Assembly (NCBI GenBank): GCA_044892505.1
Contig: CM097883.1
Location: 178,684,001-178,741,580 of the forward strand
Source: Schmidtea nova
Lineage: Eukaryota
Reading direction: 5' to 3'
Length of the DNA: 57,580 nucleotides
The position numbers and the translations under genes were made by a program. Positions 1-57,580 of this stretch are shown one piece after another. Under the pieces are notes generated by a model. That model had not been told where the DNA came from. It searched no databases and was given only the letters and a program-made list of their open reading frames with translations. How positions within the stretch are numbered: the stretch's first letter is position 1; every line of letters starts with the position of its first letter.

Positions 1-260
1 CATATGTTATATTGACACACATACTAATATTATAAACACGTCAGTGTAATAACCATAAAGAAATATATGTGTGCGTATATTTCTCTCACCTAAAACAGAT
101 TTGATTGGTCGGTTAATAACCGTTGAAATATTTTAGATATATACACTATCTTTTCATTTTTTCATCACTTTTTAACAACCAATTTTACGATTTCATTCAA
201 TTTAATTTAATCAATATGATGAATAATATTAAAAATATATCTAAGAAGAATGTCGCCGCC

Positions 261-766
261 ATGGGTAATTTTATTTTTTATTTTAATATATTATCTTTAT
301 ATTATTTCAATTTTCAGTAGCTTCGAATGGTTCCAAGTTGAAGTATGAAGCACCAGCAAATATTGTTTTAGGGCAAAATGGTATATTATTATTATTATTG
401 CTATATATTTTTTCATAATATATTTTTTAGAAATAAGAACTGTTAATTCTAATTTATTGAGATCTTTTGATCATAATCTTCGTGGACGAATTTTTCCCAC
501 AGATATTGATGAATCATTGACTAGTGGTAAATAATTGTTTTATATTTATTATGTTGTAATATATTTTAATTTAGAAATTGTATATAATAAACATGGAGAT
601 TCGTCCAATACATCAATGGAGATAACTTCAATCACGTTATCGAATATCGATTCAAACAATATGCCTGAGAAAATTCATAAAGAAAAAGAATCAGATGAAA
701 TCCATGCCAGTGATGATATTTTAATGTCTGATGAAAATTTGAGCGAAATAAATGACTCGCTAAAAT
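261..766 (+). CDS. Spliced gene of unknown function, at least 4 exons (261-264, 318-380, 431-526, 575-766); start may be ATG 261 (GCCGCCATGG context) or ATG 217
   Basis: GT-AG introns of 53, 50 and 48 nt (265-317, 381-430, 527-574). All junctions are phase 1 and the internal exons are 63, 96 and 192 nt. They splice into one open frame, MVASNGSKLKYEAPANIVLGQNEIRTVNSNLLRSFDHNLRGRIFPTDIDESLTSEIVYNKHGDSS...DSLK, ending at a GTAAGT donor at 767. No recognisable domain. Confidence 0.7.
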
Positions 767-1336
767 GTAAGTATTTGTTAAATTGTTTAAAATTTATATT
801 TAAATTATAAACATTTTTAATATATTTTTTACATTATTTGAATATTATAAATACAATATTTAAAAAATTTATAAATTAAACATATTTAAAAAATTTATAA
901 ATTAAACATATTGTAATTTATATTAAAATTATTTATTTAAAATATTATTCTAATTAATAATAATTTAAATACTTTTTAATAATATAAATTTCAATATTTA
1001 ATCATATAGTAAGAAAAATACTATTTTATTTTAATGTTTGTGATTGATAATAATAATATTTACCTTAATCTTTTTCTGTTTATTTTAGAAAACTTTAATA
1101 ATAATAATAATAATAAATTATTTTAAATATTTGTCGATTTATTATAGTAAATAGGTTAATATAATAATAATTCTTCAAATATTAAGAATAATTTATATAA
1201 ATTTATATCGATTTTTTATATTATTATTTTATATTATTATTTTATATTATTTTAAATTTGCCTTGTACATTCAGGCTCTTTATATGATAATTATTGCCAC
1301 TCATCGGGCAAACACGGTCTACAATGTCATCAACTT

Positions 1337-4300
1337 ATGACAATTTATTATCGTTATAAGTTCAATGGCATTGTCTTTTATATTTGCCCTAAATGTGAGA
1401 CTTCCCAACCCATCTCCTATTCTGATTTTTATGCTCAACATCACGTTCATCTTTCGCAATTTTTTAAATCTAAAAAATTAATTTTTAAACTTAATTCTGA
1501 GACTTCAAACATCTCTTCTTTGAAAAAATCTGTTAAAGTTGATTTAACTAAGTCTTCAACTCGTTTAAATAATAAATTACTAAATAACTTATTAAATACT
1601 ACTAATATAGAAATAATTAATCAAAATAATAAAATTAAAAATATCAAAAAACGGCCTGCTGATACCATAAAATTTATTGCCCCCAAGAAAAATAAACCTG
1701 AAATAATTATTTTAAGCGACGACGATGAAATTGTTATAAATAATCAAATAGGGGGTTCAATTAATATAAATGATGAGCCTGTAATCGAAAAAGATTTAAA
1801 AGGATCTCGACGATCATTAACTTTTAACGTTGAGTCACATAATATAAATCAAATTGCTGTAACAGAAAAAATTGCTGAACGGTTAAATAAAGAAATACGA
1901 AAAATGGGGAATGTAAAAATTCAATTCGCGCTTAATATTCAGTTTGAAAAAGATGGGGTGTTAAAAAATGAGTTTTTATCTAATAATGCAGAAATTTTTT
2001 CAGATAATTTTTTAATAGAGGGTATTAGGAAATTAAACAATAAAATTGAAAATTTCACACAGATGGGTAGCGGCTGGATTGTAAACAAAATACGGGAAAT
2101 CCATTTTATTTTAACAAAGTATTCCACCATGAGTCGATTATCTGGACATGGACATTTTAAAACCCCAAAACCGTTATTAAATAAAAGGGCTATTATAAAT
2201 GTAGAAAACTCGGACGATTTATGTTTTATATATAGTGTTTTGGCTATTTTGAAACATGAATCCATCACAAATAATCATTGTGTAACTTCAAGTTATATTC
2301 CTTTTTTAAACGATTTAGTTTTTGACCCTATAGAGGACTGCCCCATGCAACTATGTAACATCCCAAAATTTGAGCATAATAACCCAGGCTTAGCCATTAA
2401 TGTGTTGTCATACAACCCTAAAGTAATTCATAATAATGATATTGATGTGGAAGATGATGACTATGTTCCTCATCATCCCCACTTGGAAATAATACATCGA
2501 ACAAAATTAAATAATTATAACCCCATTTATCTTTTATTATTAGAAAATGAGGGCATTTATCATTATACGGCAGTCATTAATCTACAAAGGTTAATGAACT
2601 GTCATAAAAATAATTTAATTAACAGTAGGATTCAATCTTTATGGTGTCCTAGATGTTTAAATGGTTTCCGTAGTCAGGAAACCTTTGACAAGCATTTTAA
2701 TTTATGTAGGAAGAATCAAATAGGAACTACCCTTTATAGTTTACCTAAAAATAAAAATCTAGAATTTGGGGATTTTTCGAAAACTGTAACCCCACCATTT
2801 GTAATATATGGCGACTTCGAGTCAATTTTACCAATTGATGACCGTTATCACCAAAAACATTTGCCGGTATCAGCAGGATTATTACTTTTAAATAATTTAA
2901 ATAATACAAAATCATATTTCGAATTTATCGGTATTGAATGCGTAATTCAATTTTTAAAGAAAGTGGAGGAAATTGCTGTCACAATTGTCCTGCCTTATTA
3001 CGACATTCATGGAAATGCTCCGTTGCAGACATTATCTTTTTCTGAGGAACAATCTTTTCGATCTTGCTTGAATTGTTTTCTTTGTAAGAAACCCATTAGG
3101 AATCGAATTAGGGCTTTTGATCACTTTTCTGGTAGATATCTTGGGGCAGCATGTAAAATCTGCAATAATACTAGACGACTTCGTAAACATTTGCCTGTAA
3201 TCTTTCATAATTTGAGAGGTTATGACCTACATCATATTTTGAAGTATGGTTTGTCTGATTTCCCCTTATGGGAATTAGATATTATTCCAACAACGACAGA
3301 GAAATTTATTTCTCTTATAGCTAATATTAATAAACTTGCTGTTAGGTTTATTGATAGTTATCAATTTGTAACAGCTTCCTTGGATAAAGCAGTAAAAACG
3401 CTGTCCGTTTTTCCTCTTACATCATCCGTTTTCACTGGCTCTATCATGAATTGTAAGGGCATTTTTCCATTTAATTTTGCTACCAGTCTTGAGATTTTAG
3501 AGAATACTTTTGAGTTGCCACCAATTTGGGAGGAAGTAACTGAGACTCAATATATAAAAGCTCAAGAAATCTGGCGCGAAAATAACTGTAGAAATTTACT
3601 TGACTACATGATGGTCTACCTAAAATTAGACGTATTTCTCCTCGCAGATTTTTTCCAACAATTCCGAGCTAAGTCTATTGCACACAATGACTTAGATCCT
3701 TTGAATTTTTATGGAATTCCCGGTATGTCATGGGCTTCAGCGCTCATGACATTAAAGGAACCTATAGAACTTCTTCAGGATATGGAAATGTATAATTTCT
3801 ACGGGGTGGATTGACATTTGTCAATAAACATTACGTTAAAGCGTCAGATGATACTGAACTTTTATATATAGATATCAATAATCTATATGGTTGGGCTCTT
3901 AGCCAAAGTCTTCCTTTCGGTGATTTCAGGTGGGTGCATAACAATCTTGAAGATATTTTGACTGAGTGCATGTCGACGGATATTGATGATCTTTCATATG
4001 GTTACACTATGGAAGTTGACATTAATATTCATGAAAACTTGCATGTGTTTTTGGATGATTTTCCTCTTGCTCCGGAAAAGATGTACCCACCATTCTCGAA
4101 AGTTGAGAAGTTAATGCTCACGCATTATCCGAAGTATAACTATGTTATACATTGGAGACTTCTCAAGATGTTTGTGTCTCTTGGGGCTAAAATTTCTAAA
4201 ATTCATAGAGCAATTAGATTTAAACAATCTAAAATCTTTAAGGATTATATCGACGCTAATACTGAGTTTAGAGCAAACTCGAGTAATGAACTTGACAAAA

Positions 4301-5163
4301 ATTACTTTAAGCTTTTGAATAACAGCCTATATGGTAAATCCGTCGAAAATCTGAAAAAACGGATGAATTTGAGATTATGTAATTCATCTGAAAAGATGAT
4401 TATATATTCTTCAAAGCCGTCTTTCAGAAAGTCCATCAAAATTGATGACGATCTGATTGCAGCACATCTGAATAAAGATTTAATATGTTTAGATAGACCT
4501 AGTTATATCGGTCAAACGGTACTAGATCTATCTAAACTACGGATGTATCAGCTGCAATATATTGAATTGCAGAAATATAGGGATCTCTTTGATTGCACTA
4601 TAGGCATTGTTGCTGGCGACACTGACTCGTTCTTTATTGAGGTTAAAAACTGTAAACTTACCACACTTTTACCGGCTATGATTTCAGATTGTCTTTTAGA
4701 TACATCTAACTATGATCGCGACCATTCCTTATATTCACGACGTCTTGACTCGGTTATAGGTAAATTTAAAGATGAAAGTAAGGGTAATGAATATAAGGAA
4801 TGGGTTTTCTTACGCCCGAAATGTTATAGCCTTCTTGGTGATGTTGAATTAAATAAAGCCAAGGGGATTCAACTTAAAGGAACTAACATCAATCATCAAT
4901 CTTATATTGATTGTTATCTTAATGACCGGATTTTCACTGTACCACAAACTCGTATAGGGACTAAGAATCACCAGCTCTTTACGATTAAAAATAATAAGAT
5001 TGCTCTTACTAATAACGACGATAAGCGCCATTGGGTTGGGAGGAATGAAAGTCTTGCATTTGGGCATTATTTAGGAGTCAATGACTGGACTAATGGCGAT
5101 AATAATCCACCCGAAGAATTGCCAGATCCTCAATCAATACAGATGGAACAAGATTCATGGTGA
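1337..5163 (+). pseudogene. Polinton/Maverick protein-primed family B DNA polymerase (pPolB) with a C2H2-like motif and an HNH/endonuclease VII-like insert; split by one frameshift at ~3801
   Basis: Exo motifs IYGDFES, FHNLRGYDLH and YLKLDV; pol motifs YIDINNLYG, KLLNNSLYGK, GDTDSF, RPKCY and KAKG; WCPRCLNGF...H motif; CFLC...DHFSGRYLGAACKICN. ORF1 ends MYNFYGVD*, while the -1 frame reads RGGLTFVNKHY from 3802. Confidence 0.93.
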
Positions 5164-5976
5164 CAATAGAGTTTTACAAAAATAAAAGATTTATATTTTT
5201 AAATATTTGGTTATTTTTAAAGTTTTTTATTGTTTGTTTGTTTTATATAGGAACCTGTGTAAATACTAAATGTTTTTATATAGGGACTAGTATCATTTTT
5301 CAATTCATAATCGTTTGGTATTATNNNNNNNNNNNNNNNNNNNNNNNNNNNNNNNNNNNNNNNNNNNNNNNNNNNNNNNNNNNNNNNNNNNNNNNNNNNN
5401 NNNNNNNNNNNNNNNNNNNNNNNNNNNNNNNNNNNNNNNNNNNNNNNNNNNNNNNNNNNNNNNNNNNNNNNNNNNNNNNNNNNNNNNNNNNNNNNNNNNN
5501 NNNNNNNNNNNNNNNNNNNNNNNNNNNNNNNNNNNNNNNNNNNNNNNNNNNNNNNNNNNNNNNNNNNNNNNNNNNNNNNNNNNNNNNNNNNNNNNNNNNN
5601 NNNNNNNNNNNNNNNNNNNNNNNNNNNNNNNNNNNNNNNNNNNNNNNNNNNNNNNNNNNNNNNNNNNNNNNNNNNNNNNNNNNNNNNNNNNNNNNNNNNN
5701 NNNNNNNNNNNNNNNNNNNNNNNNNNNNNNNNNNNNNNNNNNNNNNNNNNNNNNNNNNNNNNNNNNNNNNNNNNNNNNNNNNNNNNNNNNNNNNNNNNNN
5801 NNNNNNNNNNNNNNNNNNNNNNNNNNNNNNNNNNNNNNNNNNNNNNNNNNNNNNNNNNNNNNNNNNNNNNNNNNNNNNNNNNNNNNNNNNNNNNNNNNNN
5901 NNNNNNNNNNNNNNNNNNNNNNNNNNNNNNNNNNNNNNNNNNNNNNNNNNNNNNNNNNNNNNNNNNNNNNNNNNNC

Positions 5977-7172
5977 ATACTTATTTCTGACATAGAAAAA
6001 TTGTTCGTGACCTACTTTTTTCTGACAGAAAAAATATATTTTACCTACTTTGTTGACCTTATAGTATCCTTAATGTACCCTTAATTCTGACTTTGAAAAA
6101 TTTCGAAATTTATTATTAACCTACTTAATTTTTACATAGAAAAAATTTTAGAAATTATTATTATTGACCTACTTAATTTGTCCTCATATTTACCTTAAAT
6201 TGACCTACTTAATTCGTCCTCACATTGACCTTAAATTGACCTACTTAATTCCGACATAGAAAATATTTTAAATATATTATAACTTTGAATAATTTTATAT
6301 TTGACCTACTTAATTCTGACATAGGAAAATTTTTATAAAAATAAAGTTGACCTACTTATTTCTGACATAGAAATATTTTTGAGAAAAATAAAGTTGACCC
6401 ACTTTTATCTGACATAGAAAAATTTTCGTGACCTACTTTTTTCTGACATAGAAAAATTTTCGTGACCTACTTTTTTCTGACAGAAAAATTTTAAGAAAAA
6501 TAAAGTTGACCTACTTTTTTCTGACATAGAAAAATTTTTGAAAAAATAAAGTTGACCTACTTATTTCTGACATAGAAAAATTTTCAAGTTTTTTATATTT
6601 GACCTACTTTTTTCTGACATAGAAAAATTTTCAAAATTATTATTGACCTACTTAATTCGTTGTCATAGCAACCACCAAATTTTGAAAAAAATAAAGTTGA
6701 CCTACTTATTCGTTGTCATAGCAACTTAAAAATATTTGACCTACTTTTTTCTGACATAGAAAAAATTTGAAAATTATATTTGACCTACTTATTTTAACCT
6801 TAAATTCACCTTAAAAATATTTGACCTACTTAATTTGTCCTTATCGTGACCTTAAATTGGCATTCTTTTTGACCTTATAATGTCCTTAAAACGACCTTGA
6901 CCTACTTTTTTGTCCTTAAAGTGTCCTTAAACCATAAATTTGACCTTAAATTCACCTTAAAGTGTCCTTAAATCGACCTTGGCCTACTTTTTTGACCTTA
7001 AAGTGTCCTTAAAGTGTCCTTAAGCAAAAAATTTGACCTTAAAGTGTCCTTAAAGTGTCCTTAAGCAAAAAATTTGACCTTAAATTGACCTACATAAATT
7101 TGACCTACATAAAAAAAAATTTTCTAGGGGGGGGGTCTTGACCTATATCTGGCGGGCTCACTTCCTACTACT
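5977..7172. repeat. Polinton terminal inverted repeat region with subterminal tandem repeats
   Basis: Many variable units built on TGACCTACTT...TCTGACATAGAAAAATTTT (5980-6830), then GTGTCCTTAA/GACCTTAAA repeats (6880-7090), a G-run at ~7127-7135 and terminal CTACTACT. The next 6 nt, ATAAAT (7173-7178), are the candidate TSD. Confidence 0.82.
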
Positions 7173-7794
7173 ATAAATATTTCACATGTCCAATATTGAA
7201 AAAATACTTGATTCAAAAAAATGAATCAAATTATTTTAGTACGATAGGAATTAGTAATGCATATTAATAAATTGAACTGACCGAAAACTGACAAGAAAAG
7301 ACAGCTTTATCCCCAAGCGCAAATCAGTGATTGTTTTATTAGAATGCCATTAGGAATTGCTGCCGCCTCAGAAACTTATGAACAAAGTACCCGGTGATTT
7401 GTCAAGTAAAACACTATAGGATATTTGAAAAAAAAATAGATTTTTTTCAAAAGATAAAAGAGGTTCATATAATCAGACTAAGTAAAGTCATAAAACGAAG
7501 AAAAAGCCTGAAAATAATACCAGAAAAATGTTTTTGAAAAATATTTCTGACTATAGAAAAAAATCTCAAGGGTCATATAATAAACAATAAAGCTGTTAGA
7601 GTAGATGAAAACCAAATTGAGACTAAATTATTTCGAAAGACATAAATGTCTAAAACAAGTTTGCTAGAATATTTCAACCAATGTGCTGAAACAATAAAGA
7701 AAAGTTAGTTTTATCTGTCACTGAAATAGCATTTGACACTAGGTGGTGTCCGATCCCAGATTGATGTCAATGGCAATAAAAGAGTAGTATCTTA

Positions 7795-9085
7795 CATGGT
7801 GCGCCCAATAAGTCGTGAGACTAATATAGAAATAATAATAGTAAAAAAATTGGTACAGACATATTTAAACTTCAACATATATAGATAAAGAAAATGTATT
7901 TTGTTTTAATAATCCATTATTGTTTAGGTATATTTTTGCGAACATTCGAAAAATGCCTCTGGAAACTATTCAATACCGTAGCGTTATTCGCTTTCTCTTT
8001 CTGAAAGGAAAAAATAGATAAGAGGTTCTTTCTGAACTGAAAGCTGTTTACCAACAAGAGTGCCCATCCACAGCAACAATTTATCGTTGGTTCAATTACT
8101 TTCAGAGTGGTAGAACCTCCGTGGTGGTCAAAGAAAGATCTGGAAGACCCTCAGAAATTGATGAAAAAATAAAGCAAAAGCTGCAGACAATCGTGCAAAA
8201 CGAGAGAAAAATAACGACGAGAGAGCTCACAACCCGTCTAAACGTGAGCAAAGGCACTGTGCATACTCTCCTCACTGAAAGTGGTATTCGAAAACTATGT
8301 TCCCGTTTTGTGCCACGCTTCTTAACAGTGGAAAAGCGACAACGATGCTTGGAATGCTGCTTGGAGAATCTGCAGATCAGGACCAATGTTGGAGACCGTT
8401 TCATTGATAATATCATCACTGTGGACGAGACACCATTGTCCCTTTATGTCCCCGAATCTTAAAGAGAGTCTCAAAAATGGAAACTGCCAGGAGAAAGCAG
8501 CTCACTGAAAATGCAGTCCTCAACTTGCCAGCGAAAGGCTCTCGTGCTGACGGTGTTTTGGAACACCAATGGCATTATTCTGACTGACTTTGCTGAATCC
8601 GGCGTGAAGATCAATAGTTCTTACTACTCCAACATCGTGCAGCAAGCAAGGAAGGCACGACGCAATAACAGAGTGTGTGATCTCTATTTTTTACACGATA
8701 ATGCTCCTATCCACACCAGCAGCGTTTCCATGGCCAAAATTGAGCGTTGCGGGCTCAATTTGCTTCCCCATCCACCATACAGTCCCGATTTGGCTCCCTC
8801 CGATTTTTTTTGTTTAACCATCTTAAGAAGCATCTGCGGGGCCAGTTGTTTGCCAACAAACATGATTTGAGAGCAGCCGTGGAGAGTTTTCTGGGAGAAA
8901 AGCCTTCAGAATTCTTCAAAAACGCCTTCGAAAACTTCGTTATTCGCTGGGAAAATTGTGTCAGTGCAGAAGGAAATTATTTTGAGAAATGATGCTTATT
9001 TACCATGCTTGTTCTAAATACAAAGTTTTGTGTTGATATCTTAAGTCTTTCTATTTTAGTCTCATGACTTATTGGGCGCACCACG
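7795..9085 (+). mobile_element. Full-length mariner (DD34D) transposon, 1291 bp
   Basis: ~30-bp TIRs CATGGTGCGCCCAATAAGTCGTGAGACTAA / TTAGTCTCATGACTTATTGGGCGCACCACG. TA at 7793-7794 on the left and CA (mutated TA) at 9086-9087 on the right. Confidence 0.93.
7953..8992 (+). pseudogene. Mariner transposase pseudogene (two in-frame stops, one frameshift)
   Basis: MPLETIQYRSVIRFLFLKGKNR*...RSGRP; catalytic TVDETP, LHDNAP and YSPDLAPSDF. Stops at ~8019 and 8460; frameshift in the T-run at ~8803-8811. Confidence 0.92.
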
Positions 9086-11229
9086 CATGAGTCTCACACA
9101 ATGAATAAATATGAAGTTAGTCATATTATTACAAAATAAGGATTTTGGTAATTTATTATTTTTCACAAAATTTCAAGCATTATTTATTCGGAAAGCGATT
9201 TAAAATAAGAACAGATAACAAGGCAATTATTTTTATGATGGCTACAAAAAAAACTTTTATAAAACCACAACTTCAAGATATGAGAAAATTTCTGAGTAGT
9301 TTAGAAATGGATATTAAATATAGAAAAGAAAATAAACATTCAAATGCTGATTTTTTTTGTGTCGAGATTAGTGTGGAAGATGCAGACAGTATATGGAAAT
9401 GCATGAAGACCCAAAAAACCAAAGAAATTACAACAAGAATATTGGAAATATCAGAGACCAAACAAGAAATAGAATGGCAACTTAATAATAAAAATTTGAA
9501 CGTCTTAAAACTTTGATAATGAAAAATGTGAACGATATAATTCAAAAATGGGATTCATGTCAAAGAAAAAAGACATTGATAACTGAGATTAACGGGACAA
9601 TAATACCAAAAGAGGTAGTCCAACTGTCTGAAGTTATACCATTTGATTTCTGTGAAACATTAAAAAGTAATGTTCAAGGAAAAAATACATTCTGAATTAG
9701 TGATTTGTGCAGTCAATATTAGCATTCTATTAATTTTGCAAATTGAAAATTCTCCAATATTCCAAATATTCACGATAAAGAAATAAAAAAAGTTAACAGA
9801 GAATTTAAGTTAATTGATCTAGTAAAAGATAAGATAGATTTAAGGAAAAAATATGATGATCTATATGATGAGTCTTATAATATGATAAAAAATATACACG
9901 AATAGAGTTATGAGTCAATGAATAAAGGTGGGAAGTTAATTATTAAAAATGTTAAATGGCTAAGTCCTTTAAAACAGTGCTATGTAACAATAAAATTTAA
10001 AATAATAAATCATAATTTATAATTTAATTAATTTGTAATTAACTACGTGATATATTAAATATTATATAATAGTCAATAAATATATATTATATACGGTAAA
10101 TGTAAATATTAATATACAGCATTATATACAGTATACATAATTTTTATTGTTTTAGAAATCACCAACAATTAAAAATGGATGTGTTTTAATAATTAACATA
10201 ATTTCTGATTTTTTGAAATAAGGATTTAACAATTGTCTTATTTTATTAGTATACTAATAGTGATCATCAAAGATTTTTGGTAATCATCTATTTAAGAAAA
10301 TGGTAAATTATTGTTTTGAAAGAATACACCAAATAACGGACATTAAAATCCCTATACTACAAAATAAAACTAGAGTATAAGATACAAACAAACTTGATTG
10401 TGCTAATGGTACGATATAGGTTTGCTGACAATGAATAAAATATTTATTATGTGGTCGATAAAAAGAGTAATAAAAAATCATAAACCATATAATGCTTGAA
10501 CATGGTAAAAAATGCATGCAAACTGGTAATTCATTAATTTCTACTAATGAATAAAAACCCATAATAAATTTTAATCACACATCAAAGTTTTGTGTGTAAC
10601 TCAAATTTTTAACTAAAAATTTTGTGTTAAGTCCCTATATTCGTACTAAATTATGTACAAAAATTATTCATAGAAGGTAATAATGTTTTACTAATTAATT
10701 TATTAGTTAAATTATTTTTCATTTATAATTAATTTAAAATTTTATCAAAAAATGGAAATATATGATGAATTTTATTAAAATGAATTTTAGTTGCAATATT
10801 AATTACTAACACTACATGAAAATAAATCCAATAACACTTCAAAATAACTTCAAAATTATATAAAATGATATTAAAGTCATTATAATTAAAATTACTTAAT
10901 ATTTTTCAAATAATATAATGATTAATCACTGATATACACACCAACTAGTATTATAGAATGTGGTATTCAGAGTTATACGGTATATTTTATGCGCATATAT
11001 TTTGCTCATATTTTAGCTCGTAACTCAGTGCGTGAATTTATATATTTAAGTGCGTGTTCATCGAGTTTTGATTTTATAAACTCGCGCCTGTGTGCGTGCT
11101 TTTTATTAGTTATTTTTGATAATTGAATAGGTTTTTCTAGTAATAGGATAATTCGGTATTGTCTTATTCTACTGGTTTTTGGTAAAAATTTCAGATTAAT
11201 TGGTATTCTTGTAATTAAGCTAGTTTGAG

Positions 11230-16133: not shown

Positions 16134-18060
16134 TCCCCCTTCTTTAGAAAATTTTTAAGTTTTTTCACATTTTTTTTGATTTTTTTACCATTCTCGTTTC
16201 TTAAGATATATCGTCTGTCATGCCCTTTCTCGATGACTTTGTATGACCCCTCATATCTGTTCTAGGTTTTGTTGCGTGTCTCTAATTTTACTAACACGTC
16301 TTCTCCAACATTGAATTTCCTCCTTGTTCGTTCTTCCAGTTTTTCTTTTACTTATTTTTCTTTGGACTCGTACCATTTTTCTCTGCCAATCATTTTTCCA
16401 AAAACTATCTCTGCCGGGCTATTTCCTGTTGTTTTTTGTTTGGTTACATTTAATGTAAATTCTACTTCTGGGAGTATCTCTGCCCAATCAATCTTCTTTC
16501 TGTCCTGTAAAGTAGCATTTATCAGTTCTCGGATTGTCCTGAATTGTCTTTCAATCTGTCCATTTCTTTGTTGATGATATGGACTCGTAAAACATGATTT
16601 AATATTTAGCTTCTTTGTAAATTCTCTCATCATTACCGCAATCAACTCTTATCTTCTTTGGGCAACCAATACTTAAAATCCATTTTTCGACAATCGTTTT
16701 CTTTATTGTTTCCTAGTTTGGTCTTGTCAAGGCTGTCAAGACTTGATACTTACTTTACTGGTCTATTATGCCCAATATATGCTTTTTACGTCCTCTTGTT
16801 TCTTGCATTGGTCCACATATATCCACGAATATAATTTCAAACATTTCGGTTGATTCTAGTTTCTTACTGGTTCTTTTGATGTTATTGTTATAGCCTTAGT
16901 CTTTTGACAAATCTCGCAACTTCTAACAATTTCCTGAATCTGACTCAACAAGTGTTTTCCAAAATATCTATCTTTCATATAATCGGCTATCTTCTCGACT
17001 CCAGCATGACACAATAGTCCGTGTATTTCCTTTATAGTCATTTGTATCTCGTTTTCAGGTCTCATCGTTTTCTTTTGTACTTTTTCTTCCAAGTTTCTTT
17101 GTTTTCCAATGCTTCTCCTTTCTTCTCTGATCGAGTCTAATAATCTACTTTTTATTTTCTCTTTCTTATTTTCTTCATGTGTCATTTGACACTTAGTACA
17201 AGTGTCACATTTAGTTCTCGACACCATGTCTGAACTTTGGTGATTAACACCCTTTCTGTATTCTATAAACATATTAAACTGCTTAAATAATTGATCTAGG
17301 TTTGGAATTGGGAAGTAATTGGCTTCTTGGTTGTCATCATAAACCTGATCGCCTTGTGGTCTATCCTAAGTGTAAATCTCCTTCTGAAGAGATAGTGCTT
17401 AAAATAAATGCAAAAGTAGTATACAGCCAATAGTTCCTTCCTTGTAATAAAATGCCATTTTTCGTGGCTTGTCATCGAGTGTGATCCATACGCAATAACT
17501 CTTTCCTTTGCATCTTTATCTCTTTGTAAAATTACTGCCTATATCTACTTATATGTCCGTTTCTGTGACACATCCAGCACGAGACATTTCTTTTTATTGG
17601 ACAGTCTATTTTCGTATGGCTCGTTTTGTGGCATAACCGATATTCTGGTCCTTCTCTTCTACTGGTTTCTTCTATTTATTTTTCTGCTTGCACTGTCTCA
17701 TCTCTGTGACTCCTGTTGGACCACTATTGCGTAACATTTCATAACGTTTATCTGATCTCTTTGTTTCTCTACTTTATCCATAAGAATTAGTGTTTCTTTT
17801 ATTTCTTCTGTGTTTTTTATCTTTCGTAGTATTACTTCTTTCTCAACTTCTTTATTCTCCGCACATACTATCAACATCTTTGCTGTTACTTTCTCTTTAG
17901 TGAATTCTCTATTCTCGAATAACCTGTTCAAAAAGACCTCTACCTTTTTAGAGTACGTTTCAATCTCTTCGCCTTTTCGCTTTTAATTAAATAAAATTTC
18001 CTTCTTAATTCTTTTTAAATTCGTCTTTCAATATTTCCATAGTTAATTGCTTAACTATAG
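16134..18060 (-). mobile_element. Decayed Ty3/Gypsy element: gag joined to RNase H and integrase, with protease and RT missing
   Basis: Integrase TSPYHQQRNGQIERQFRTI...WAEILPEVEFTLN and H-X4-H/C-X2-C (IHGLLCHAG...CEICQK); RNase H VIAYGSHSMTSHEK..ITRKELLAVYYF; gag-like ORF 17698-17931; purine tract at ~16134-16146. Confidence 0.85.
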
Positions 18061-22557: not shown

Positions 22558-23395
22558 ATGCTAACTATCACTGATCGTGACATATCAATAAATTTTCTCT
22601 TTGAACCTAATCCATCTCAGATAAAATACATAGAAAAGGTTATTGATTCATTAAAAGGCAGTAAACAAGCAATTTTGGAATCTTTAACCGATACCGGAAA
22701 ACTCTTTATTTACTCTGTGCAGCACTCGCATGGCAGGATCATATGAAAAAAACTTCTACAATTAATTCCGACAATGAAATTTCTATTTCAAACAAAAACA
22801 ATAATAAATTCAATTGGGCTTCTAATAAGAATCAAAGAGTTGCTGTGGATAAAAATCGAATTCTTAGTTTTTGGTGTATGACTCCAGGACGCACCATGAA
22901 ATCATTGGCTAATTGTGTGTTCGTAGCATTATACTAACAAGTGGAACTGTATGTCCAATAGAAACTCTGAAATTGGACATGGATATTAAATTTGAAGTAG
23001 AGTTACGTAATAGTCATGTAATAAATGCAGATCAGATGATGGTCACGGTATGTACTAAAGGTGCTGATAGTGAAACTCTAAATTCCAGCTATTTGACTAG
23101 TGAAAAAATAGCCTATACTTTTTCTTGGAAATGCTATTTTAAATTTTGTCAAAGTCATTCCATGTGGTTTATTAGTTGTCTTTCCATCTTATGGAATGAT
23201 GAATAAATGTATTGAACGAGGAGAAAGCTATGATATTTACCATTCTGTAATGCAACAAAAGCAACTTATTATTGAACTTCAAGATAAAACTAAATTTACA
23301 TTGGCTATGGAGCAATTTTATTCTAAATATTCTGACCCTATGTCCAATAAAGGATCTATTTTACTATCTGTTGCAAGAGACAAAATAAGTGAAGG
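22558..23395 (+). pseudogene. RTEL1: RTEL1-like (XPD/DinG family) DNA helicase pseudogene: intronless, internally deleted, 3'-truncated
   Basis: Across three frameshifts: INFLFEPNPSQIKYIEKVIDSL...AILESLTDTGK/TLYLLCAALAWQ (Q motif and degenerate Walker A), RILSFWCMTPG, VRSIILTSGT, LGNAILNFVKVIPCGLLVVFPSY, GSILLSVARDKISEG. These parallel RTEL1 motifs in the same order. Confidence 0.85.
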
Positions 23396-25973
23396 CCCTG
23401 GAATGGCTTTAGGGGGAATCTATAATAAGTTAATAATGGGCCCAGCAACTTCTATAGGGTTCCCGCCTATAGTTACAGCTACTGCTGAAACAATAATAAT
23501 AATAATAATAATAATAATAATTTTTATTAATAATTTTATCTTTATATATTTATAAAGTAACCTTTTAATTTTATCTTTTTAAAAATTATAAATACATTTA
23601 AAAAATTCAGAAGGTTTTTTAAAAATATGTCGATTTTTTAATTTGTTGAAATTATTCATGTGCTTAAATATACCATTTTGATCTATAGTCTTTATATAAA
23701 AATTAAAATTTCTAAACTTGAAAAGAGTACGATATCAAAGAAAAAATATTAAAGATCTAAATGGCAAAATTGATATTTCATTGCATAAGTTAATAAAATA
23801 AATCATTCAGCCTATGCATTTATTTTAGAAATCGAAAGTAATAAGTATCTAAATGAAATTATTTCATGGATATATTTTTATATTTTTATACCTTTGTGAA
23901 TAATGTAAAAATATTAATATTAATAAAATACATCTGTAAATGAAACTTACAGCACTATGCTTGTAATAAATAAACATGAGCGTCCCATCCAGACTTAAGC
24001 TGCAGGAAGTNNNNNNNNNNNNNNNNNNNNNNNNNNNNNNNNNNNNNNNNNNNNNNNNNNNNNNNNNNNNNNNNNNNNNNNNNNNNNNNNNNNNNNNNNN
24101 NNNNNNNNNNNNNNNNNNNNNNNNNNNNNNNNNNNNNNNNNNNNNNNNNNNNNNNNNNNNNNNNNNNNNNNNNNNNNNNNNNNNNNNNNNNNNNNNNNNN
24201 NNNNNNNNNNNNNNNNNNNNNNNNNNNNNNNNNNNNNNNNNNNNNNNNNNNNNNNNNNNNNNNNNNNNNNNNNNNNNNNNNNNAATTTACTTCATCTAAA
24301 TATGGCCTCCATATTAATTCTGTTTCATTTTTTGTTTTTAAATTAAGAAGTTTTCTTTCATTTAATTCATTGACATAGCTCAACAGATCTGAAAGCATTA
24401 TATATAATTACAATACTGACCAATATTTTACCCTTTCCGATCCATTCATACGTTATGGTTTTATGAAGATTGCGACTCTGAAAAATATCTGGGAATGTAA
24501 ATTTGAAACCATAATTTATTTTCTTTCCATCTGAAAAATTATTCAAATTTATATGCAAATATTAAAAATATAAAAATATAATGTCAATTGTTTACTAATT
24601 TATTAAATTTTCAATACCCTTTAATTATTTCTTTAAGGATATCGAAAAAAGACAATGATTCTTGGGATAATTTATTCTTCACTGCAAATACCTTTCAGTT
24701 TTTGGGGGTTGAGATTTAATATTATATAATATAAATTATTTGGTTCACAAATTAATTATTGATTAAAATATTAATAAATTAAAGATGAACATTTATTAAA
24801 ATGACAATTTAAATCGTTTGAAATGAATTTGTTTACAAAAGATAAGAATTACTGTTTTTTATCTTATTCATTTATTTCGTTCACTGTAACAATGTCACTT
24901 TACATGATAATTTCCAAGCAAAATTTATCTTTTTTTAATATAAACAAATCTTTATTTATTTTATATTTAAAATTCCTTACCAATATTTTTAAAACTGACC
25001 TCTATATAGATAAAAATAAAGATAAAAATTCTTTAAAAAATTAGTACCGAAAATTTGTGTTGTACCGGAAAAATCTTTTGATCTATTTGTTTATAAGTAA
25101 AAATAATGAAATTGAAAAATAGAATAAATGTGACAAAAATTAAAAATCTTAATGATAAATAAAATAGAGTTCCTTACCCAGTAATATTTCTATGTAAAAA
25201 GCACTAAATATAAATAAAAAATAGACATTTTTTATTTAATAAAATAGCGAATTATTTTTAATCAAAGTACCATTAAAACAAATCGGAATTAATTAACATT
25301 TTAATAAAATGAGAAATTGATGTAATTAAAATATGAAAAATTAAACAATAATAATAATCATTATAGTGACATAATTACTGATGATAATACTAAAACAGGG
25401 TATTCAATGTGTATAAAACACAAAACCTTGCTTATCCATAATTAATTAATTAACTTAAATTTAAAATTAATATGTTCAAAAGAGAAAATAATCAAATAAG
25501 TTTATTGGGGCAACATGACAAAAAAAAAAAAAGCGATAAAATAATAAAACCTCTGTAACACTAATTGCGCAAGTGATTAATTAACGCGTTCGCTACCTTA
25601 GCCGTCCTAGAACGTAGCAACGGCGATTAAGTTACAATTTCTGCAATGTAATTTAAGCCACCTGCAAGGCAGCTAGCTGGCAATATGTAGGTCGAACTAA
25701 AATTGTGAAAATTGTGATAAATGTTATGTAATGCACAAGAATAGTGATCAATTCAAAGTTATTTGTAAGGAAATATGAAAAATGTTAATTTAGAAAATTT
25801 ATATGTAACTGACGAAAAGAATATATTATTGATATGTTGTATGAATTAAAATATATAAAAAAATAAACTATTTAATTATTGAAAAAAACATTTGTCGGAT
25901 GACTTATTTGTTTTTAACAAGTAAAGCTTTTGATTTTTTGTGATACCCAGTGCAAATCCCCAATAGCAGACTA

Positions 25974-36419: not shown

Positions 36420-37601
36420 TCATAAAAGGTTTTCGAAAATACCTCCATTTTGTTCGAAACATATTCGCACTCGATTTTTAAACCCCTCCAAAACATTTCT
36501 CATCATACCTGTAGTAATAGTCAACGAAACTTGATCAATTTTATTTCTTAGAGAAACAAGACTTTCAGACCGTTCAAAATATACATTATCTTTCAAAAAA
36601 CCCCAATAAAAGAAATTCATTGGGGTAAGATCAGGTGATCTTGCTGGCCAGTTCATTGTTCCTCCTCGTCCAATCCACCGGTCACTAAAATTTTCATTTA
36701 AGTACCGCCTAACATCAATTGCGTAATTTGGAGGCGCCCCATCTTGTTGAAACCAGACTGTTTCATATAAATTCATCTCACGCAATGCGGGTACAATATC
36801 ATTTTCCAATAAACGCAGATATTTTTCACCATTTAAATTCCCATTAATATAAAACGGTCCAACTATCGATTCATTTATCAACCCAGCCTACACATTTAAC
36901 TTTGCTTGATTTTGATTGTTTGTAGGAAGAAAGCGATGTAGATTTACGGAGCTCCAATATCTACAATTCTGATGATTTATTTCACCGTTTAAAGTAAATG
37001 TTGATTCGTCGGTAAATAGAATATTTTTGGCAAAATTATTGTCTGACTCCAATTTAGAAAACATATCCTGGCAGAAAATTTTTCTTTTCTCTTCATATCG
37101 ATCAAGTAATTCCTGGTGATTAGTGAAGTGGTATGATTTGAAACCATTTTTGGTCAGGGTCTTATAAACAGACGATTTATTGACGTTCGAGAGCGTTGCT
37201 ATGGCCTGTGTCGACAATCTGTTATTCGAATTAATATATCCAATAATTTCTGTTTGTTTCGAAGGTGTCAAAACAGTTTCAATTCTAGTTCGGGTTGCGT
37301 GCTCGCTTTTAATGCAACCCCCAGTTGTAAATTTATCAAGTATTCTTGATATGGTTGAAAAATTTGGCACGGGGCGTCCTGTAAATTTTCTCATGAATTC
37401 ATTTTGTATCTGCAAAAAGCTTAGATTGCCACTCCTCCATTTTACAATTTGAATCTTTTCCTCAACCGTAAACATAAAATAGACTTTATTTTTTCTATTT
37501 ATAATTATCTATTGCATTTTCAAAAAAACGATATTAATAATACTATTATATATGGAAATTATCAATAAAAATTACTATTGCATTTTAAAAAAAACACCCT
37601 G
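36420..37601 (-). mobile_element. DD41D (rosa/Visitor-type) Tc1/mariner transposase pseudogene with one TIR
   Basis: ORFs 37475-36888 and 36881-36420 are joined across one stop. Motifs FTDESTF, QQDGAPP and WPARSPDLTPMN; 41 residues after the second D, with the third D replaced by N. The end reads CAGGGTGTTTTTT on the minus strand with TA at 37602-37603. The other TIR was not found and may lie in the N-run. Confidence 0.85.
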
Positions 37602-38005: not shown

Positions 38006-39946
38006 CAGGGTTATGAGCAAATATATTTAATTTTATGAATAAATATATTTAATTTTATGAATAAATATATTTAATTTTATGAATTAATATATTTAATTTT
38101 ATGAATAAATATATTTAATTTTATGAATTAATATATTTAATTTTATGAATTAATATATTTAATTTTATGAATCAATATATTTAATTTTATGAATTAATGT
38201 ATTTAATTTTATGAATTAATGTATTTAATTTTATGAATCAAAGTATTTAATTTTATAAAATATCAGGATTACTCCCTAATTTATGATTTCAGAGGAGCAA
38301 AACAGCAGCGAAGACGTCAGCCCGCAGATTACAGATAGTATACAACGTAAAAAACGAAAAACAATACGATTGGAGGATCTTAAACGAATAAGAAAGCACG
38401 TTGAAAAAAACGCAACAACGGCAGAAATTGCAGAATCAGAAGATATTTCCCTACAGACCGCATATAATCTGGTAAATAAAATCGGGGAAGGATTGCTTGA
38501 CGAAGAAATTGTGGGCAAAAAGAAGGGAAGGAAGAAAGAGCATTTAACAGAAGTTAAAAATAAACTCAATCAGATACTTTTAAGAGATTCTTCGTACACT
38601 CAGGCTGAGATGTCAGAATACTTAGAAGAGTTTCAAGTTTCGCGAACTCAAAGTGGAATTTCGCGGATTCTTAAAGACATGGGGTATACCAGAAAACGTC
38701 TTGTTTGTATTCCCGAGGAAAGAAACAGGGCCTCCACCATTGATTCTCGCCAGAACTTTGCGAGAGAAATTCAATTTATTGCAAATGAAAATTTAGTCTT
38801 CCTGGATGAAACAGGCACTAATTTACACCACACGCGCAATTATGGATATTCTCCAAAAAATGTAAAAGCAGTTAAAGTGGTAAAAGGCAACAAAGGTACT
38901 AACATCAGTTCCATGGTGGCGATAAATCATGCTGGTATAGTGGCATTTGAAATAAAGGCGGGATCTTTCGAAGGGGACACTTTTAAAATTTTTATTCAAG
39001 AAAAGCTTTTGCCACATTTTTTAAACAACCCAAACGATGTTTTGATAATGGACAATTGTAGTTTCCATCACAGAAGAGATGTAATTAATTTACTAAGAAC
39101 AAATTTTATTAATCATCGATTCCTTCCTCCATACTCTCCCCAGCTTAATCCGATTGAGGAATATTTCAGTCATTTGAAATCTGCTTTGAGTGCGATTCAT
39201 CCTCTACCGCAAAACAAAAGCGAGCTCATTCAGAGAATAAATACGCTTTTAACCGAGGAAGAAATTGATTTTAGCGGCTGGTTTAGAAACATGAGAAGAT
39301 ATGTTGACATGGCACTTGCAAGGAATTTATTCATTTAATAAAAAGCTTTAAGAGATTTATTTATTCATATTCTTAAAATTATATTCGAACAATTTCGTTT
39401 CAATTATTCATCGAGCAAAGTTTATAAACTGGCAACAGCATCGTTAATAATTTTTATTGCTACTTCAAAGAAGCTTCAAAAAAAATAAATGGAATTTTAA
39501 TTTTATTTGCAAAAATATATGAATTAAATAAAAATTAAGAATCGCAAATTCCCGAAAAACAATGAAATTCTACGTATTTAAGGCCTAATTCTAACTAGCC
39601 ACAATGCCCGTACATATTAAGCTGTGCAAATTTACTGTCTATGTATGTATCCTGCTTTTTAAAATTTTTGTATTTTCTTCAATTTTATAATTTGGGTAAA
39701 CGACATCAAATTAATTCATAAAATTAAATATATTAATTCATAAAATTAAATATATTAATTCATAAAATTAAATATATTAATTCATAAAATTAAATATATT
39801 TATTCATAAAATTAAATATATTTATTCATAAAATTAAATATATTTATTCATAAAATTAAATATATTAATTCATAAAATTAAATATATTTATTCATAAAAT
39901 TAAATATATTTATTCATAAAATTAAATATATTTGCTCATAACCCTG
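38006..39946 (+). mobile_element. Intact IS630/Tc1-like transposon, 1941 bp, with ~250-bp TIRs made of 23-bp tandem repeats
   Basis: Ends CAGGGTTATGAGCAAATATAT / ATATATTTGCTCATAACCCTG; TA at 38004-38005 and 39947-39948; 10 copies per arm of ATATTTAATTTTATGAAT(A/T)AAT. Confidence 0.95.
38283..39338 (+). CDS. DD34E transposase (IS630/Tc1, DDE_3-like), 351 aa, uninterrupted
   Basis: HTH-like N-terminus, MGYTRKR, VFLDETG, IMDNCSFH, LPPYSPQLNPIEE; 34 residues between the second D and E. Confidence 0.95.
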   Translation: MISEEQNSSEDVSPQITDSIQRKKRKTIRLEDLKRIRKHVEKNATTAEIAESEDISLQTAYNLVNKIGEGLLDEEIVGKKKGRKKEHLTEVKNKLNQILLRDSSYTQAEMSEYLEEFQVSRTQSGISRILKDMGYTRKRLVCIPEERNRASTIDSRQNFAREIQFIANENLVFLDETGTNLHHTRNYGYSPKNVKAVKVVKGNKGTNISSMVAINHAGIVAFEIKAGSFEGDTFKIFIQEKLLPHFLNNPNDVLIMDNCSFHHRRDVINLLRTNFINHRFLPPYSPQLNPIEEYFSHLKSALSAIHPLPQNKSELIQRINTLLTEEEIDFSGWFRNMRRYVDMALARNLFI

Positions 39947-54419: not shown

Positions 54420-56351
54420 TTCACCTTTGATCTTTTTTTATTATTATTATCAATAATTCTCATAATGACTATAGATCAAAATTTTTTTTTATAAACAATA
54501 ACACAATATTTCGGCACAGCCTTTATCAAGTGTGTATTTCTATCGTTATATTTACTTAATCCTAAATAGTAGCCTTAATTATTTTTTTAATATTTTATAA
54601 TGATTTTATTGGATGAAAAAATTTATTTTATTTTAATTTTTTTGTGCGAATTGAATGTTGATGGACGGTTTGTATTTTTTTATGAAAAAAGTCTCGGAAG
54701 CTAATCTTTGTAATGAATTTTTGAATCCCTCTTGTAGGATCTGGCATTTTGTTTCTTCTATAGATGGAGTTGTTTTATGTACTTTTTCCCAGTGTTCGTA
54801 ATAATTACTGGTTTTGATTTTAGTATGTTCATTAAGTCGGGTGCGAAAAGTTCTATGTGTTTCTCCTATGTAAGTAGCGTCACATTTTTGACAAGAAAGT
54901 TTATATACTATATTTTTGGAAAAGCAAAAGCATCGGGTTGTGGAACGACAAAGACATTTATGTTTGGAGATGTTGGAAATTGGTGGCTTTCGGAGTTGTG
55001 ATTTTAACGGTGCGGAGGTTATGAACGTTGGACGGATGTGGATAGGCAAATCTGTTTGATTAAAAATGTTGGTGATTTTGTTGGCTGTAGTGTCATTTAG
55101 GAAAGGTAATCTTAGATATGTTGTGTGTTTGTTATTGTTATTGTGTTTCTGGCGTTTTCTATTGTTGCGTTTATTGTGGTATGGTTCGTTAAGGAAGTGT
55201 TTCTTTACAAAGTCTTCAGGGTATCCATTTTGGAGGAATCGTATTTTGAAGTTTTCTAATGTTTCTTGTATTTTGTTTGCGTCTGAACAGTTTCTTATGG
55301 CTCTTTTTCTTTCTCCTATTAGTAATGCGATTTTGCGTTGAAGTGGAACGTGGCTTTTCCATGGGAGGATATGACCGCTATGTAAACCTTTAGAATATAG
55401 CTCGGTGTTTGCATTTAGTGTATCTTGGCCTTTTGTGAAACTTACCATGGTATCTAAAAACGGTATTTTACCTTCTGTGTTCGGTGTTTCAAAAGTAAAT
55501 TGTATGTTGGTGTTAGTAGAATTTGCGTGTGATAGGATTTGATTGAGAGGGATTGTGGAGACTATGAAGATGTCGTCGATGTATCGTTTCCAGAAAAGTA
55601 TTTTGTCCCCAAAAAAAGATATGATCTTAGATTCTATAAAGTTCATGTAGAAGATGGCTAAGATGGGAGAAAGGTTATTACCCATGGCTAATCCATGAAT
55701 TTGTTTGAATGGTTTTTCTTTAATTATGACAGTATCTGAATTTATTGCTAATTTTAGAAGTTCTATAAAGTCTTGTTTAGTTAAGTCTGCGAGGTCAGTA
55801 TTGGCTTTATGAGTTTCAAAGAAAGAAGCTGCGATATCGAAAATGTTATTCTCTCCGTGAAGAGGAATAGATCCGTAAAGATTGGAAACGTCAAGAGATC
55901 CCCAGAAGTACTGTTGTCCTGAGTTTAACGGAAGAGACGTATTTGTAATTTCGGAGACGAATTCAGTTGTGTTTTTAAGATGAGAAGGAACCAAAGGCAA
56001 AAGTGTTTTTAGAATTTCTGAAAGAACTTTAGAAAGTGTTGTGGAAGGAGTGTCAACTGCAGATACAAGAGGTCTACCTTTTAAAGGACTTTTGTGATCT
56101 TTAGGTAACATAGTCATATTACTAGGTAAAGGCTCACTGCAGTTGCATTTTAAAAGTAAATCTTTGATTTGAAGGTTAATTTGTTTATTTGCAAGTGTTG
56201 AAAGTTTCTTATTGTATAAAATCTGAGTCGATGCAGGTAAGATTATTTTGTTTATCGGTTCATAGTTCGAGAGATGTTCTTCAAATAGAGTATTGTATTG
56301 TTCTGTGTCAAGAGCAATTAGTCGATTTGTTTTATCTGATGGAAGAATTGT
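54420..56351 (-). mobile_element. Penelope-like retroelement copy A: 5'-truncated, with 3' pLTR
   Basis: Continuous RT-GIY-YIG frame plus a downstream terminal repeat shared with 31055-31225 and 34961-35100. Confidence 0.95.
54633..56351 (-). CDS. PLE reverse transcriptase + GIY-YIG endonuclease (5'-truncated; the frame is open upstream of the called Met at 56117)
   Basis: TILPSDKTNRLIALD, LPKDHK, SLDVSNLYG, GLAMGNNLSP, RYIDDIF, IPFLD, NGYP, Cys-rich linker HKCLC...RCFC and IVYKLSCQKCDATYIGETHRTFRTRLNEH. No stops. Confidence 0.95.
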   Translation of the reverse strand, partial: TILPSDKTNRLIALDTEQYNTLFEEHLSNYEPINKIILPASTQILYNKKLSTLANKQINLQIKDLLLKCNCSEPLPSNMTMLPKDHKSPLKGRPLVSAVDTPSTTLSKVLSEILKTLLPLVPSHLKNTTEFVSEITNTSLPLNSGQQYFWGSLDVSNLYGSIPLHGENNIFDIAASFFETHKANTDLADLTKQDFIELLKLAINSDTVIIKEKPFKQIHGLAMGNNLSPILAIFYMNFIESKIISFFGDKILFWKRYIDDIFIVSTIPLNQILSHANSTNTNIQFTFETPNTEGKIPFLDTMVSFTKGQDTLNANTELYSKGLHSGHILPWKSHVPLQRKIALLIGERKRAIRNCSDANKIQETLENFKIRFLQNGYPEDFVKKHFLNEPYHNKRNNRKRQKHNNNNKHTTYLRLPFLNDTTANKITNIFNQTDLPIHIRPTFITSAPLKSQLRKPPISNISKHKCLCRSTTRCFCFSKNIVYKLSCQKCDATYIGETHRTFRTRLNEHTKIKTSNYYEHWEKVHKTTPSIEETKCQILQEGFKNSLQRLASETFFIKKYKPSINIQFAQKN

Positions 56352-57580
56352 GGGTAATAACCTTGGGTAATAACCTTTCTCCCATCTTAGCCATCTTCTA
56401 CATGAACTTTATAGAATCTAAGATCATATCTTTTTTTGGGGACAAAATACTTTTCTGGAAACGATACATCGACGACATCTTCATAGTCTCCACAATCCCT
56501 CTCAATCAAATCCTATCACACGCAAATTCTACTAACACCAACATACAATTTACTTTTGAAACACCGAACACAGAAGGTAAAATACCGTTTTTAGATACCA
56601 TGGTAAGTTTCACAAAAGGCCAAGATACACTAAATGCAAACACCGAGCTATATTCTAAAGGTTTACATAGCGGTCATATCCTCCCATGGAAAAGCCACGT
56701 TCCACTTCAACGCAAAATCGCATTACTAATAGGAGAAAGAAAAAGAGCCATAAGAAACTGTTCAGACGCAAACAAAATACAAGAAACATTAGAAAACTTC
56801 AAAATACGATTCCTCCAAAATGGATACCCTGAAGACTTTGTAAAGAAACACTTCCTTAACGAACCATACCACAATAAACGCAACAATAGAAAACGCCAGA
56901 AACACAATAACAATAACAAACACACAACATATCTAAGATTACCTTTCCTAAATGACACTACAGCCAACAAAATCACCAACATTTTTAATCAAACAGATTT
57001 GCCTATCCACATCCGTCCAACGTTCATAACCTCCGCACCGTTAAAATCACAACTCCGAAAGCCACCAATTTCCAACATCTCCAAACATAAATGTCTTTGT
57101 CGTTCCACAACCCGATGCTTTTGCTTTTCCAAAAATATAGTATATAAACTTTCTTGTCAAAAATGTGACGCTACTTACATAGGAGAAACACATAGAACTT
57201 TTCGCACCCGACTTAATGAACATACTAAAATCAAAACCAGTAATTATTACGAACACTGGGAAAAAGTACATAAAACAACTCCATCTATAGAAGAAACAAA
57301 ATGCCAGATCCTACAAGAGGGATTCAAAAATTCATTACAAAGATTAGCTTCCGAGACTTTTTTCATAAAAAAATACAAACCGTCCATCAACATTCAATTC
57401 GCACAAAAAAATTAAAATAAAATAAATTTTTTCATCCAATAAAATCATTATAAAATATTAAAAAAATAATTAAGGCTACTATTTAGGATTAAGTAAATAT
57501 AACGATAGAAATACACACTTGATAAAGGCTGTGCCGAAATATTGTGTTATTGTTTATAAAAAAAAATTTTGATCTATAGT
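56352..57580 (+). mobile_element. Penelope-like retroelement copy B, more 5'-truncated (starts at GNNLSP), inverted relative to copy A; runs off the window edge
   Basis: Translation from GNNLSP to the stop at 57415 is identical to copy A, and the 3' region mirrors 54468-54632. The N-terminal ~65 aa of ORF 56189-57415 are just the antisense of copy A. Confidence 0.95.
57511..57550 (+). ncRNA. Variant minimal hammerhead ribozyme in the pLTR (mirror copy at 54498-54537, minus strand)
   Basis: Stem I ACAC/GTGT (extendable ATA/TAT with a bulge); core TTGATAA (U3...A8); extra A; stem II GGC-TGT-GCC; GAAA; palindromic AATATT stem III; AUU triplet. Confidence 0.7.

Follow-up and report, generated by a model that had tools for sequence, protein, structure and literature searches.

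Predicted spliced 5′ exons in the DNA polymerase gene of a Schmidtea nova Polinton

A Polinton polymerase with predicted upstream exons

The window analysed here, a 57,580-nt stretch of Schmidtea nova contig CM097883.1, contains the right-hand part of a multi-copy Polinton/Maverick element with its protein-primed DNA polymerase gene (pPolB), whose coding region appears to begin in four short upstream exons. Coordinates are positions within this window unless a locus label is given. The pPolB open reading frame (ORF) comes in two overlapping plus-strand pieces. By position, and with inferred domain borders, the 5′ piece (1256-3814; first Met at 1337) covers the terminal-protein, vOTU and exonuclease regions; the 3′ piece (3796-5163), in another frame, holds the palm and matches the family B polymerase profile PF03175 (E-value 4.6e-16), which the homologues also carry. 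The OTU region gave no profile match; its Cys/His motifs (LCF..YS and HY, which we take to be vOTU marks) were recognized by eye where a vOTU would be expected.

A predicted core promoter (103-171, plus strand) was read from the sequence as a reversed CCAAT box (ATTGG), a TATA-like box at 138-143 and an initiator-like TCACTTT at ~165-171, and by eye this order of motifs recurs 5′ of the leaders of sister lineages. Because the TATA-like box and the TCACTTT precede ATG 216, we moved the start of exon 1 there from position 255, where the sequence-only reading had placed it. The resulting coding part of exon 1 (216-264, plus strand; further in-frame ATGs at 219 and 261; phase-1 end) has 16 codons, compared with 16-18 in sister lineages B, D, E1, E2 and G, and ATG 216 is probably the true start. 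ATG 261 was dropped in its favour on comparative grounds only. It is followed on the same strand by intron 1 (265-317, 53 nt, tandem acceptor 317/320), exon 2 (318-380, phase 1/1), intron 2 (381-430, 50 nt), exon 3 (431-526, phase 1/1), intron 3 (527-574, 48 nt) and an acidic, low-complexity exon 4 (575-766), the last base of which is the T of a split Cys codon. The splice sites of the earlier exon block stood: donors 265, 381, 527 and 767 were read directly and delimit four phase-1 exons with ~50-nt introns, ending at a GTAAGT. The host genome is itself AT-rich with very short introns. No Pfam match was found for exons 2-4.

The GTAAGT donor opens a long intron 4 (767-1274, plus strand, 508 nt, 91% AT) that contains two rival acceptors, 1088 and 1147, and a single AATAAA at 1112. 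Its predicted acceptor, 1274, lies directly behind an AG-free stretch of 86 nt and leads in frame into ORF 1256-3814, with T|GC (Cys) as the junction codon, as direct reading confirmed. The coding stretch ahead of the first in-ORF Met (1275-1336, plus strand) would supply the remainder of a CCHC zinc unit, so that 133 leader codons, the junction Cys and 20 further codons give a predicted extension of 154 residues before Met 1337. The sequence-only reading had cautioned that an in-frame join has a one-in-three chance per acceptor. The present join goes beyond chance: among the nine AGs between 807 and 1473, 1274 alone opens at least 150 codons, and its position, phase and Cys recur in eight sister lineages. 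The same reading had rightly singled out 1088 as a strong nearer acceptor giving an immediate TAA, and a second product from that site is weighed below. Splicing exon 1 directly to 1274 also keeps the frame, yet yields Gly instead of Cys, and was discarded as a candidate for the main form.

The exons lie inside a multi-copy element

The element measures 17.36 kb between inverted ends (AGTAGT...ACTACT) flanked on both sides by ATAAAT. Its right terminal inverted repeat occupies 5976-7174, with the inner part running into an N stretch (5325-5975), and the 6-bp target-site duplication follows at 7175-7180; the counterpart before the left end lies upstream of the window, at L022:9819. The right flank differs in each of five other copies, one of which has its own 6-bp duplication, TTGATG, on both sides. 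Upstream of the window the element encodes a protease, a capsid-like gene, an integrase, an ATPase and three minus-strand ORFs. The integrase (L021) matches rve (E-value 6.2e-9) and a chromodomain (1.3e-4), the packaging ATPase matches Pox_A32 (5.9e-7) and the adenain-like protease Peptidase_C5 (8.9e-6). The capsid-like gene scores as DJR-like at 9.1e-4, under the curated cut-off, and the minor capsid gene is so called solely from its position. On these sequence features the element is a Polinton/Maverick.

Searching the genome with window positions 200-800 returned 1162 candidate matches, and all 40 that were scored were full length at ~100% identity; a genome search with the window's own protein found near-identical copies only. 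All 20 loci compared, the window's own included, retain the start, the short-intron sites, donor 767 and acceptor 1274 without change. Among 18 recent copies, intron 4 shows 13 distinct insertions or deletions, whereas exons 1-4 and 1275-1337 show none. The four exons are therefore likely the Polinton's own inherited 5′ coding exons of pPolB, judged from this comparison of copies.

The window copy of the polymerase is broken near 3800, where its two pieces overlap. A single ORF of 1292-1306 codons is present in eight of the nine other copies fetched, and a frame of at least 1290 amino acids is open in 73 of the 150 best matches. The frameshift reported by the sequence-only reading is real in this copy, then, but is no trait of the family: it is a lesion of the window copy alone.

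The junction recurs in sister lineages

Two degenerate motifs matched 372 and 3315 places, from which 60 loci were clustered and 20 longer stretches fetched; a first, narrower motif had matched seven places, all older or rearranged copies of the window's family. The polymerases of eight sister lineages share 38-52% amino-acid identity with the window ORF. In all lineages protein conservation extends 5′ of the first Met, beginning at a Gly codon whose initial G is that of AG|G, and G1, C8, S10, H14, C18 and M22 are invariant in the nine aligned rows. No in-frame ATG lies upstream of this Gly in eight of the nine lineages, and lineage C has a stop directly before it.

Donor (T|GT) and acceptor (AG|GY) are kept at the aligned position in all eight sister lineages, with TGC or TGT as the junction codon in 13 of 13 copies. 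The layout in each lineage comprises promoter-like motifs, an ATG, one to five short Asn-rich exons, the last donor and a long intron. Short leader introns measure 43-57 nt and are nearly all in phase 1 (phase 0 in lineage H); the last intron measures 130-972 nt in all 13 copies. A T precedes the donor in nine of nine last introns compared with two of 22 short ones (Fisher p 2.7e-6, to be taken as a guide only, since the lineages share ancestry and the introns are partly duplicates and not independent). Leaders from different lineages can hardly be aligned with one another; the junction has therefore been kept while its surroundings have not. Of the two possibilities raised by the sequence-only reading, this comparison gives good support to a spliced N-terminal extension of pPolB.

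Several further features of the leaders and introns were noted. Adjacent leader exons and introns resemble each other by eye (L156 exons 3-4, L151 exons 2-4, L138 exons 1-2), a pattern that copying of whole exon-plus-intron blocks would produce. The long polymerase intron of lineage F contains an antisense gene (L153:ori 6547-7479; also L154, L155 and L140) that resembles ORF m1 (E-value ~1e-5 in L154 and L155) and apparently has its own introns and promoter.

A Cys/His domain completed by the last splice

In the window, the ligands of the CCHC unit would be the junction Cys, Cys 1295, His 1313 and Cys 1325. A second predicted zinc unit, CPxC...H-x2-H (1385-1450, plus strand), is invariant in both alignments examined, and across lineages and homologues the Cys/His ligands are conserved at fixed spacing. 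Zinc binding by the CCHC and C2H2-like units is predicted from these ligands. The pattern C-x6-C-x4/5-H-x2/5-C-x3-M is present in homologues P0021/P0031, P0049 and P0011. A profile search gave 65 homologous proteins, 40 of which match the C..H..C unit, 39 with at least five upstream residues. All 39 of these informative homologues have a Cys 5-8 residues before the unit, against a background Cys frequency of 3.9%; the spacing is 7, as in the window, in 16 of them, 6 in 13, 5 in nine and 8 in one.

Three metagenome loci (L158-L160) carry a TATA-like box and encode the same unit in one contiguous ORF, with a Met that lies 2-5 residues before the Cys. They came from a search with a five-row alignment, in which three of 80 metagenome loci had a readable match at the N-terminus; scans of metagenome and viral contigs with single proteins gave no hits, and a 13-row alignment was too diverse. 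An alignment-based model of the N-terminus of the intronless homologue L158 reached a predicted local distance difference test score (pLDDT) of 83-95 over residues 1-60 (mean pLDDT 79), and a single-sequence fold of a homologue N-terminus was poor (pLDDT 48.8). Leads to zf-C2H2 clusters in the Atlas appeared only at ranks 25 and 28.

Taken together, we consider it highly probable that the polymerase mRNA is spliced from four upstream exons, the last splice completing a CCHC zinc unit ahead of the second CPxC..H..H unit, with the terminal-protein, vOTU, exonuclease and palm regions following. A predicted TATA promoter near 140 would drive a single pre-mRNA, and the host spliceosome would then excise three introns of ~50 nt and a fourth of 508 nt, adding 154 residues before Met 1337. 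Here the first Cys of the N-terminal CCHC unit would arise with the last splice, at a place where relatives have no intron; the intron was presumably gained once, in the ancestor of the window genome's lineages. The Asn/Asp/Glu-rich leader is probably a disordered, fast-changing and tolerated extension that grows by duplication of exon-plus-intron blocks. If the vOTU cleaves as proposed in the literature, leader and zinc units would stay with the terminal-protein piece.

Some homologues differ in detail. Phe-rich runs just before the Cys unit in P0021, P0031 and P0049 resemble read-through pyrimidine tracts, and the genes of these homologues may be interrupted by an intron some codons farther 5′. 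Many short homologues (e.g. P0114, P0117, P0119, P0120, P0129) end just past both Cys/His units in G-K-I/L-F-like tails, which may represent donor-site read-through behind the domain. In P0101, P0126, P0131 and P0132 the Cys/His domain occurs two or three times.

Weighing the spliced reading and its alternatives

A number of points weigh against the spliced reading or limit it. Junctions, transcription and splicing are all predicted from DNA comparison. Four read runs of unspecified kind cover introns as well as exons, with no predicted joint among the joints listed, and are evidence neither way. A splice matrix trained on 25 short introns places the conserved acceptor at the top in only six of nine lineages and second in one, but sixth of eight AGs in lineage B; in the window 1274 ranks fifth of nine AGs, and both 1147 and 1088 score higher. 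Leaders were parsed in 12 of the 20 fetched stretches, which gave the eight further leader types; last donors were picked by eye from a candidate list, and in three of 13 copies the automatic exon chain crossed the TATA box, so that those first exons were cut by hand. Of the 65 homologues, 25 do not match the motif, many of them starting at a later Met, and are uninformative. The Cys/His domain found no fold match (pdb, viral, pdb_via_wide) and no PDB sequence match. The proposed single gain draws on a quick, midpoint-rooted tree with two short rows, in which seven lineages of the window genome form one branch (SH-aLRT, an approximate likelihood-ratio support, 97) with the three intronless loci outside; a single gain fits this tree, which does not prove its direction.

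The matrix scores bear directly on a variant of the spliced reading. Since 1088 and 1147 outscore 1274, a short leader-only product is possible in the window family, and both products might be made: full splicing would give the polymerase, while use of 1088 or 1147, or intron retention, would give a leader-only protein of ~130-150 residues or a decayed mRNA, a switch by which the host cell type or the element itself would limit replication. In each of the 13 copies the last intron (130-972 nt) greatly exceeds the others (43-57 nt) in length, a retained frame closes within 1-26 codons, and the 1088 AG, which is present in 20 of 20 loci, scores high, stops at once and lies 24 nt upstream of the intron's only AATAAA. 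We nevertheless regard dual products as rather unlikely. A strong stop-giving acceptor occurs in only two of nine lineages, AATAAA is not enriched (one seen against 2.9 expected), the older copy L071 has lost the 1088 AG and kept 1274, and early stops are expected anyway in 90% AT DNA; in lineage F, moreover, the last intron is long because the antisense gene sits in it. A further conjecture, which we hold a little less likely still, is that the intron inside the first zinc-ligand codon acts as a replication gate: the host spliceosome would pick the full polymerase with a complete zinc unit or the leader-only product, with tissue-specific switching of an endogenous DNA virus, while the leader grows by copying exon-intron blocks.

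The remaining alternatives detach the exons from the polymerase or from the element. A separate small gene might end at 1088, with pPolB starting at Met 1337 from its own promoter. Locally 1088 does outscore 1274, automatic gene calls of several homologues begin at the equivalent Met, and small ORFs upstream of PolB occur in adintoviruses in the available part of Starrett et al. (PMC8502044). Such an arrangement is improbable, given that protein-level conservation extends over the 20 codons before Met 1337 in all lineages, these codons having no ATG of their own in eight of nine, that 1088-type sites are not conserved, and that the upstream Cys unit is present in longer proteins from the same homologue clusters. 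The sequence-only reading had also proposed that a host gene was fused to, or had domesticated, the N-terminal half of a dead polymerase, an idea to which the host-type short introns and the frameshifted window copy lend themselves. It can be set aside as very improbable: the exons lie inside the inverted repeats and occur in many copies at different insertion sites instead of at a single locus outside the element, the leaders that different lineages have at this place are unrelated to one another, exons 2-4 match no Pfam family, and the polymerase frameshift is not shared by the lineage. Because the exons belong to the element and the frameshift is specific to one copy, neither fusion nor domestication is needed.

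Comparison with known systems

The element resembles the Alpha adintovirus/Polinton described in the accessible text of Starrett et al. (PMC8502044) and other Polintons/Mavericks in its inverted ends, 6-bp duplication, length of ~17 kb, pfam03175 polymerase, rve integrase with chromodomain, A32-like ATPase, adenain-like protease and capsid-like gene. It differs in its introns. Core genes of vertebrate Mavericks are reported as intronless in the available part of PMC8097293, and those of a nematode Maverick likewise, with introns in cargo genes only, in that of 10.1101/2022.07.12.499685. The window family, by contrast, has conserved spliceosomal-type introns predicted in both pPolB (13 of 13 copies) and the integrase (nine of nine). 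The integrase intron (L021:5666-5708), a 40-45-nt phase-1 GT..AG intron within a TD.G|KEF motif, occupies the same site in all nine copies, sister lineages included.

Krupovic et al. describe, in the portion consulted of 10.1101/2024.03.18.585575, a TP-vOTU-EXO-PALM polymerase architecture. The window polymerase shares its long N-terminal region before the exonuclease and, by eye, LCF..YS and HY motifs at the expected vOTU place, and differs in having a low-complexity spliced leader and two Cys/His units in front; the words 'zinc', 'splic' and 'intron' are absent from the text of that paper. Introners have been reported inside dinoflagellate eupolintoviruses (PMC12166617, in part). These too are spliceosomal introns within polinton-like elements, but they are young and mobile, whereas the position here is old and shared, with differing intron sequences and a conserved codon split. 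Spliced Polinton genes were not mentioned in the accessible parts of PMC10748475, PMC8502044, PMC11296320, PMC6431247, PMC5718144, PMC12721341 and 10.1101/2024.03.25.586562. No paper on spliced Polinton core genes was found in a literature search that left out Kapitonov and Jurka 2006, the 2024 taxonomy review, Repbase entries and supplements, so a prior mention is possible.

If the spliced reading is correct, two core genes of a virus-like element require the host spliceosome, and the element provides a clear-cut example of intron gain that can be set against intronless relatives as the outgroup. Maverick/Polinton core genes are annotated as plain ORFs; the polymerase N-terminus would therefore be mis-called in the window clade (by ~150 residues in the window family), cutting off a conserved Cys/His domain. 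The junctions 766/1275 and 766/1089 would provide precise measures of where and when such elements make their polymerase, which is hardly known so far.

Splicing has precedents in other elements. In adenovirus, E2B splicing adds a few residues from a shared upstream exon to the polymerase and pTP, and in the P element control of intron 3 gates element activity. As in the gene model proposed here, a replication or transposition protein starts in upstream exons and splicing can gate activity. The adenovirus case differs in that a few residues from a shared exon stand against a variable leader of ~130 residues here, for which regulated splicing is only conjectural.

Other features of the element and the window

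Among the minus-strand ORFs upstream of the window, L021:3460-3951 encodes a protein resembling TATA-binding protein (TBP; Pfam TBP, E-value 1.6e-15; PDB TBPs, E-values down to 1e-16). The TBP-like gene is also present in L143, L146, L155 and L157, and such a gene is named in an adintovirus figure legend in the part of PMC8502044 that was available.

Modules look shuffled between lineages, to judge from pairwise identities. The gene at the minor-capsid position is 91-92% identical to that of the window family in L150 and L156 and 59-62% identical in L147, L148 and L151, and the integrase is 95-96% identical in L147 and L148. In lineages B and C many copies are back-to-back polymerase pairs, separated by ~6 kb that contain no other element gene (L138, L141, L144).

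Elsewhere, the window contains Tc1/mariner-type transposases, pieces of long terminal repeat elements and of reverse transcriptases, and a helicase C-terminal fragment (8022-8870, 36420-37508, 38280-39338, 9121-9516, 16856-17365, 54633-57415 and 23112-23555).

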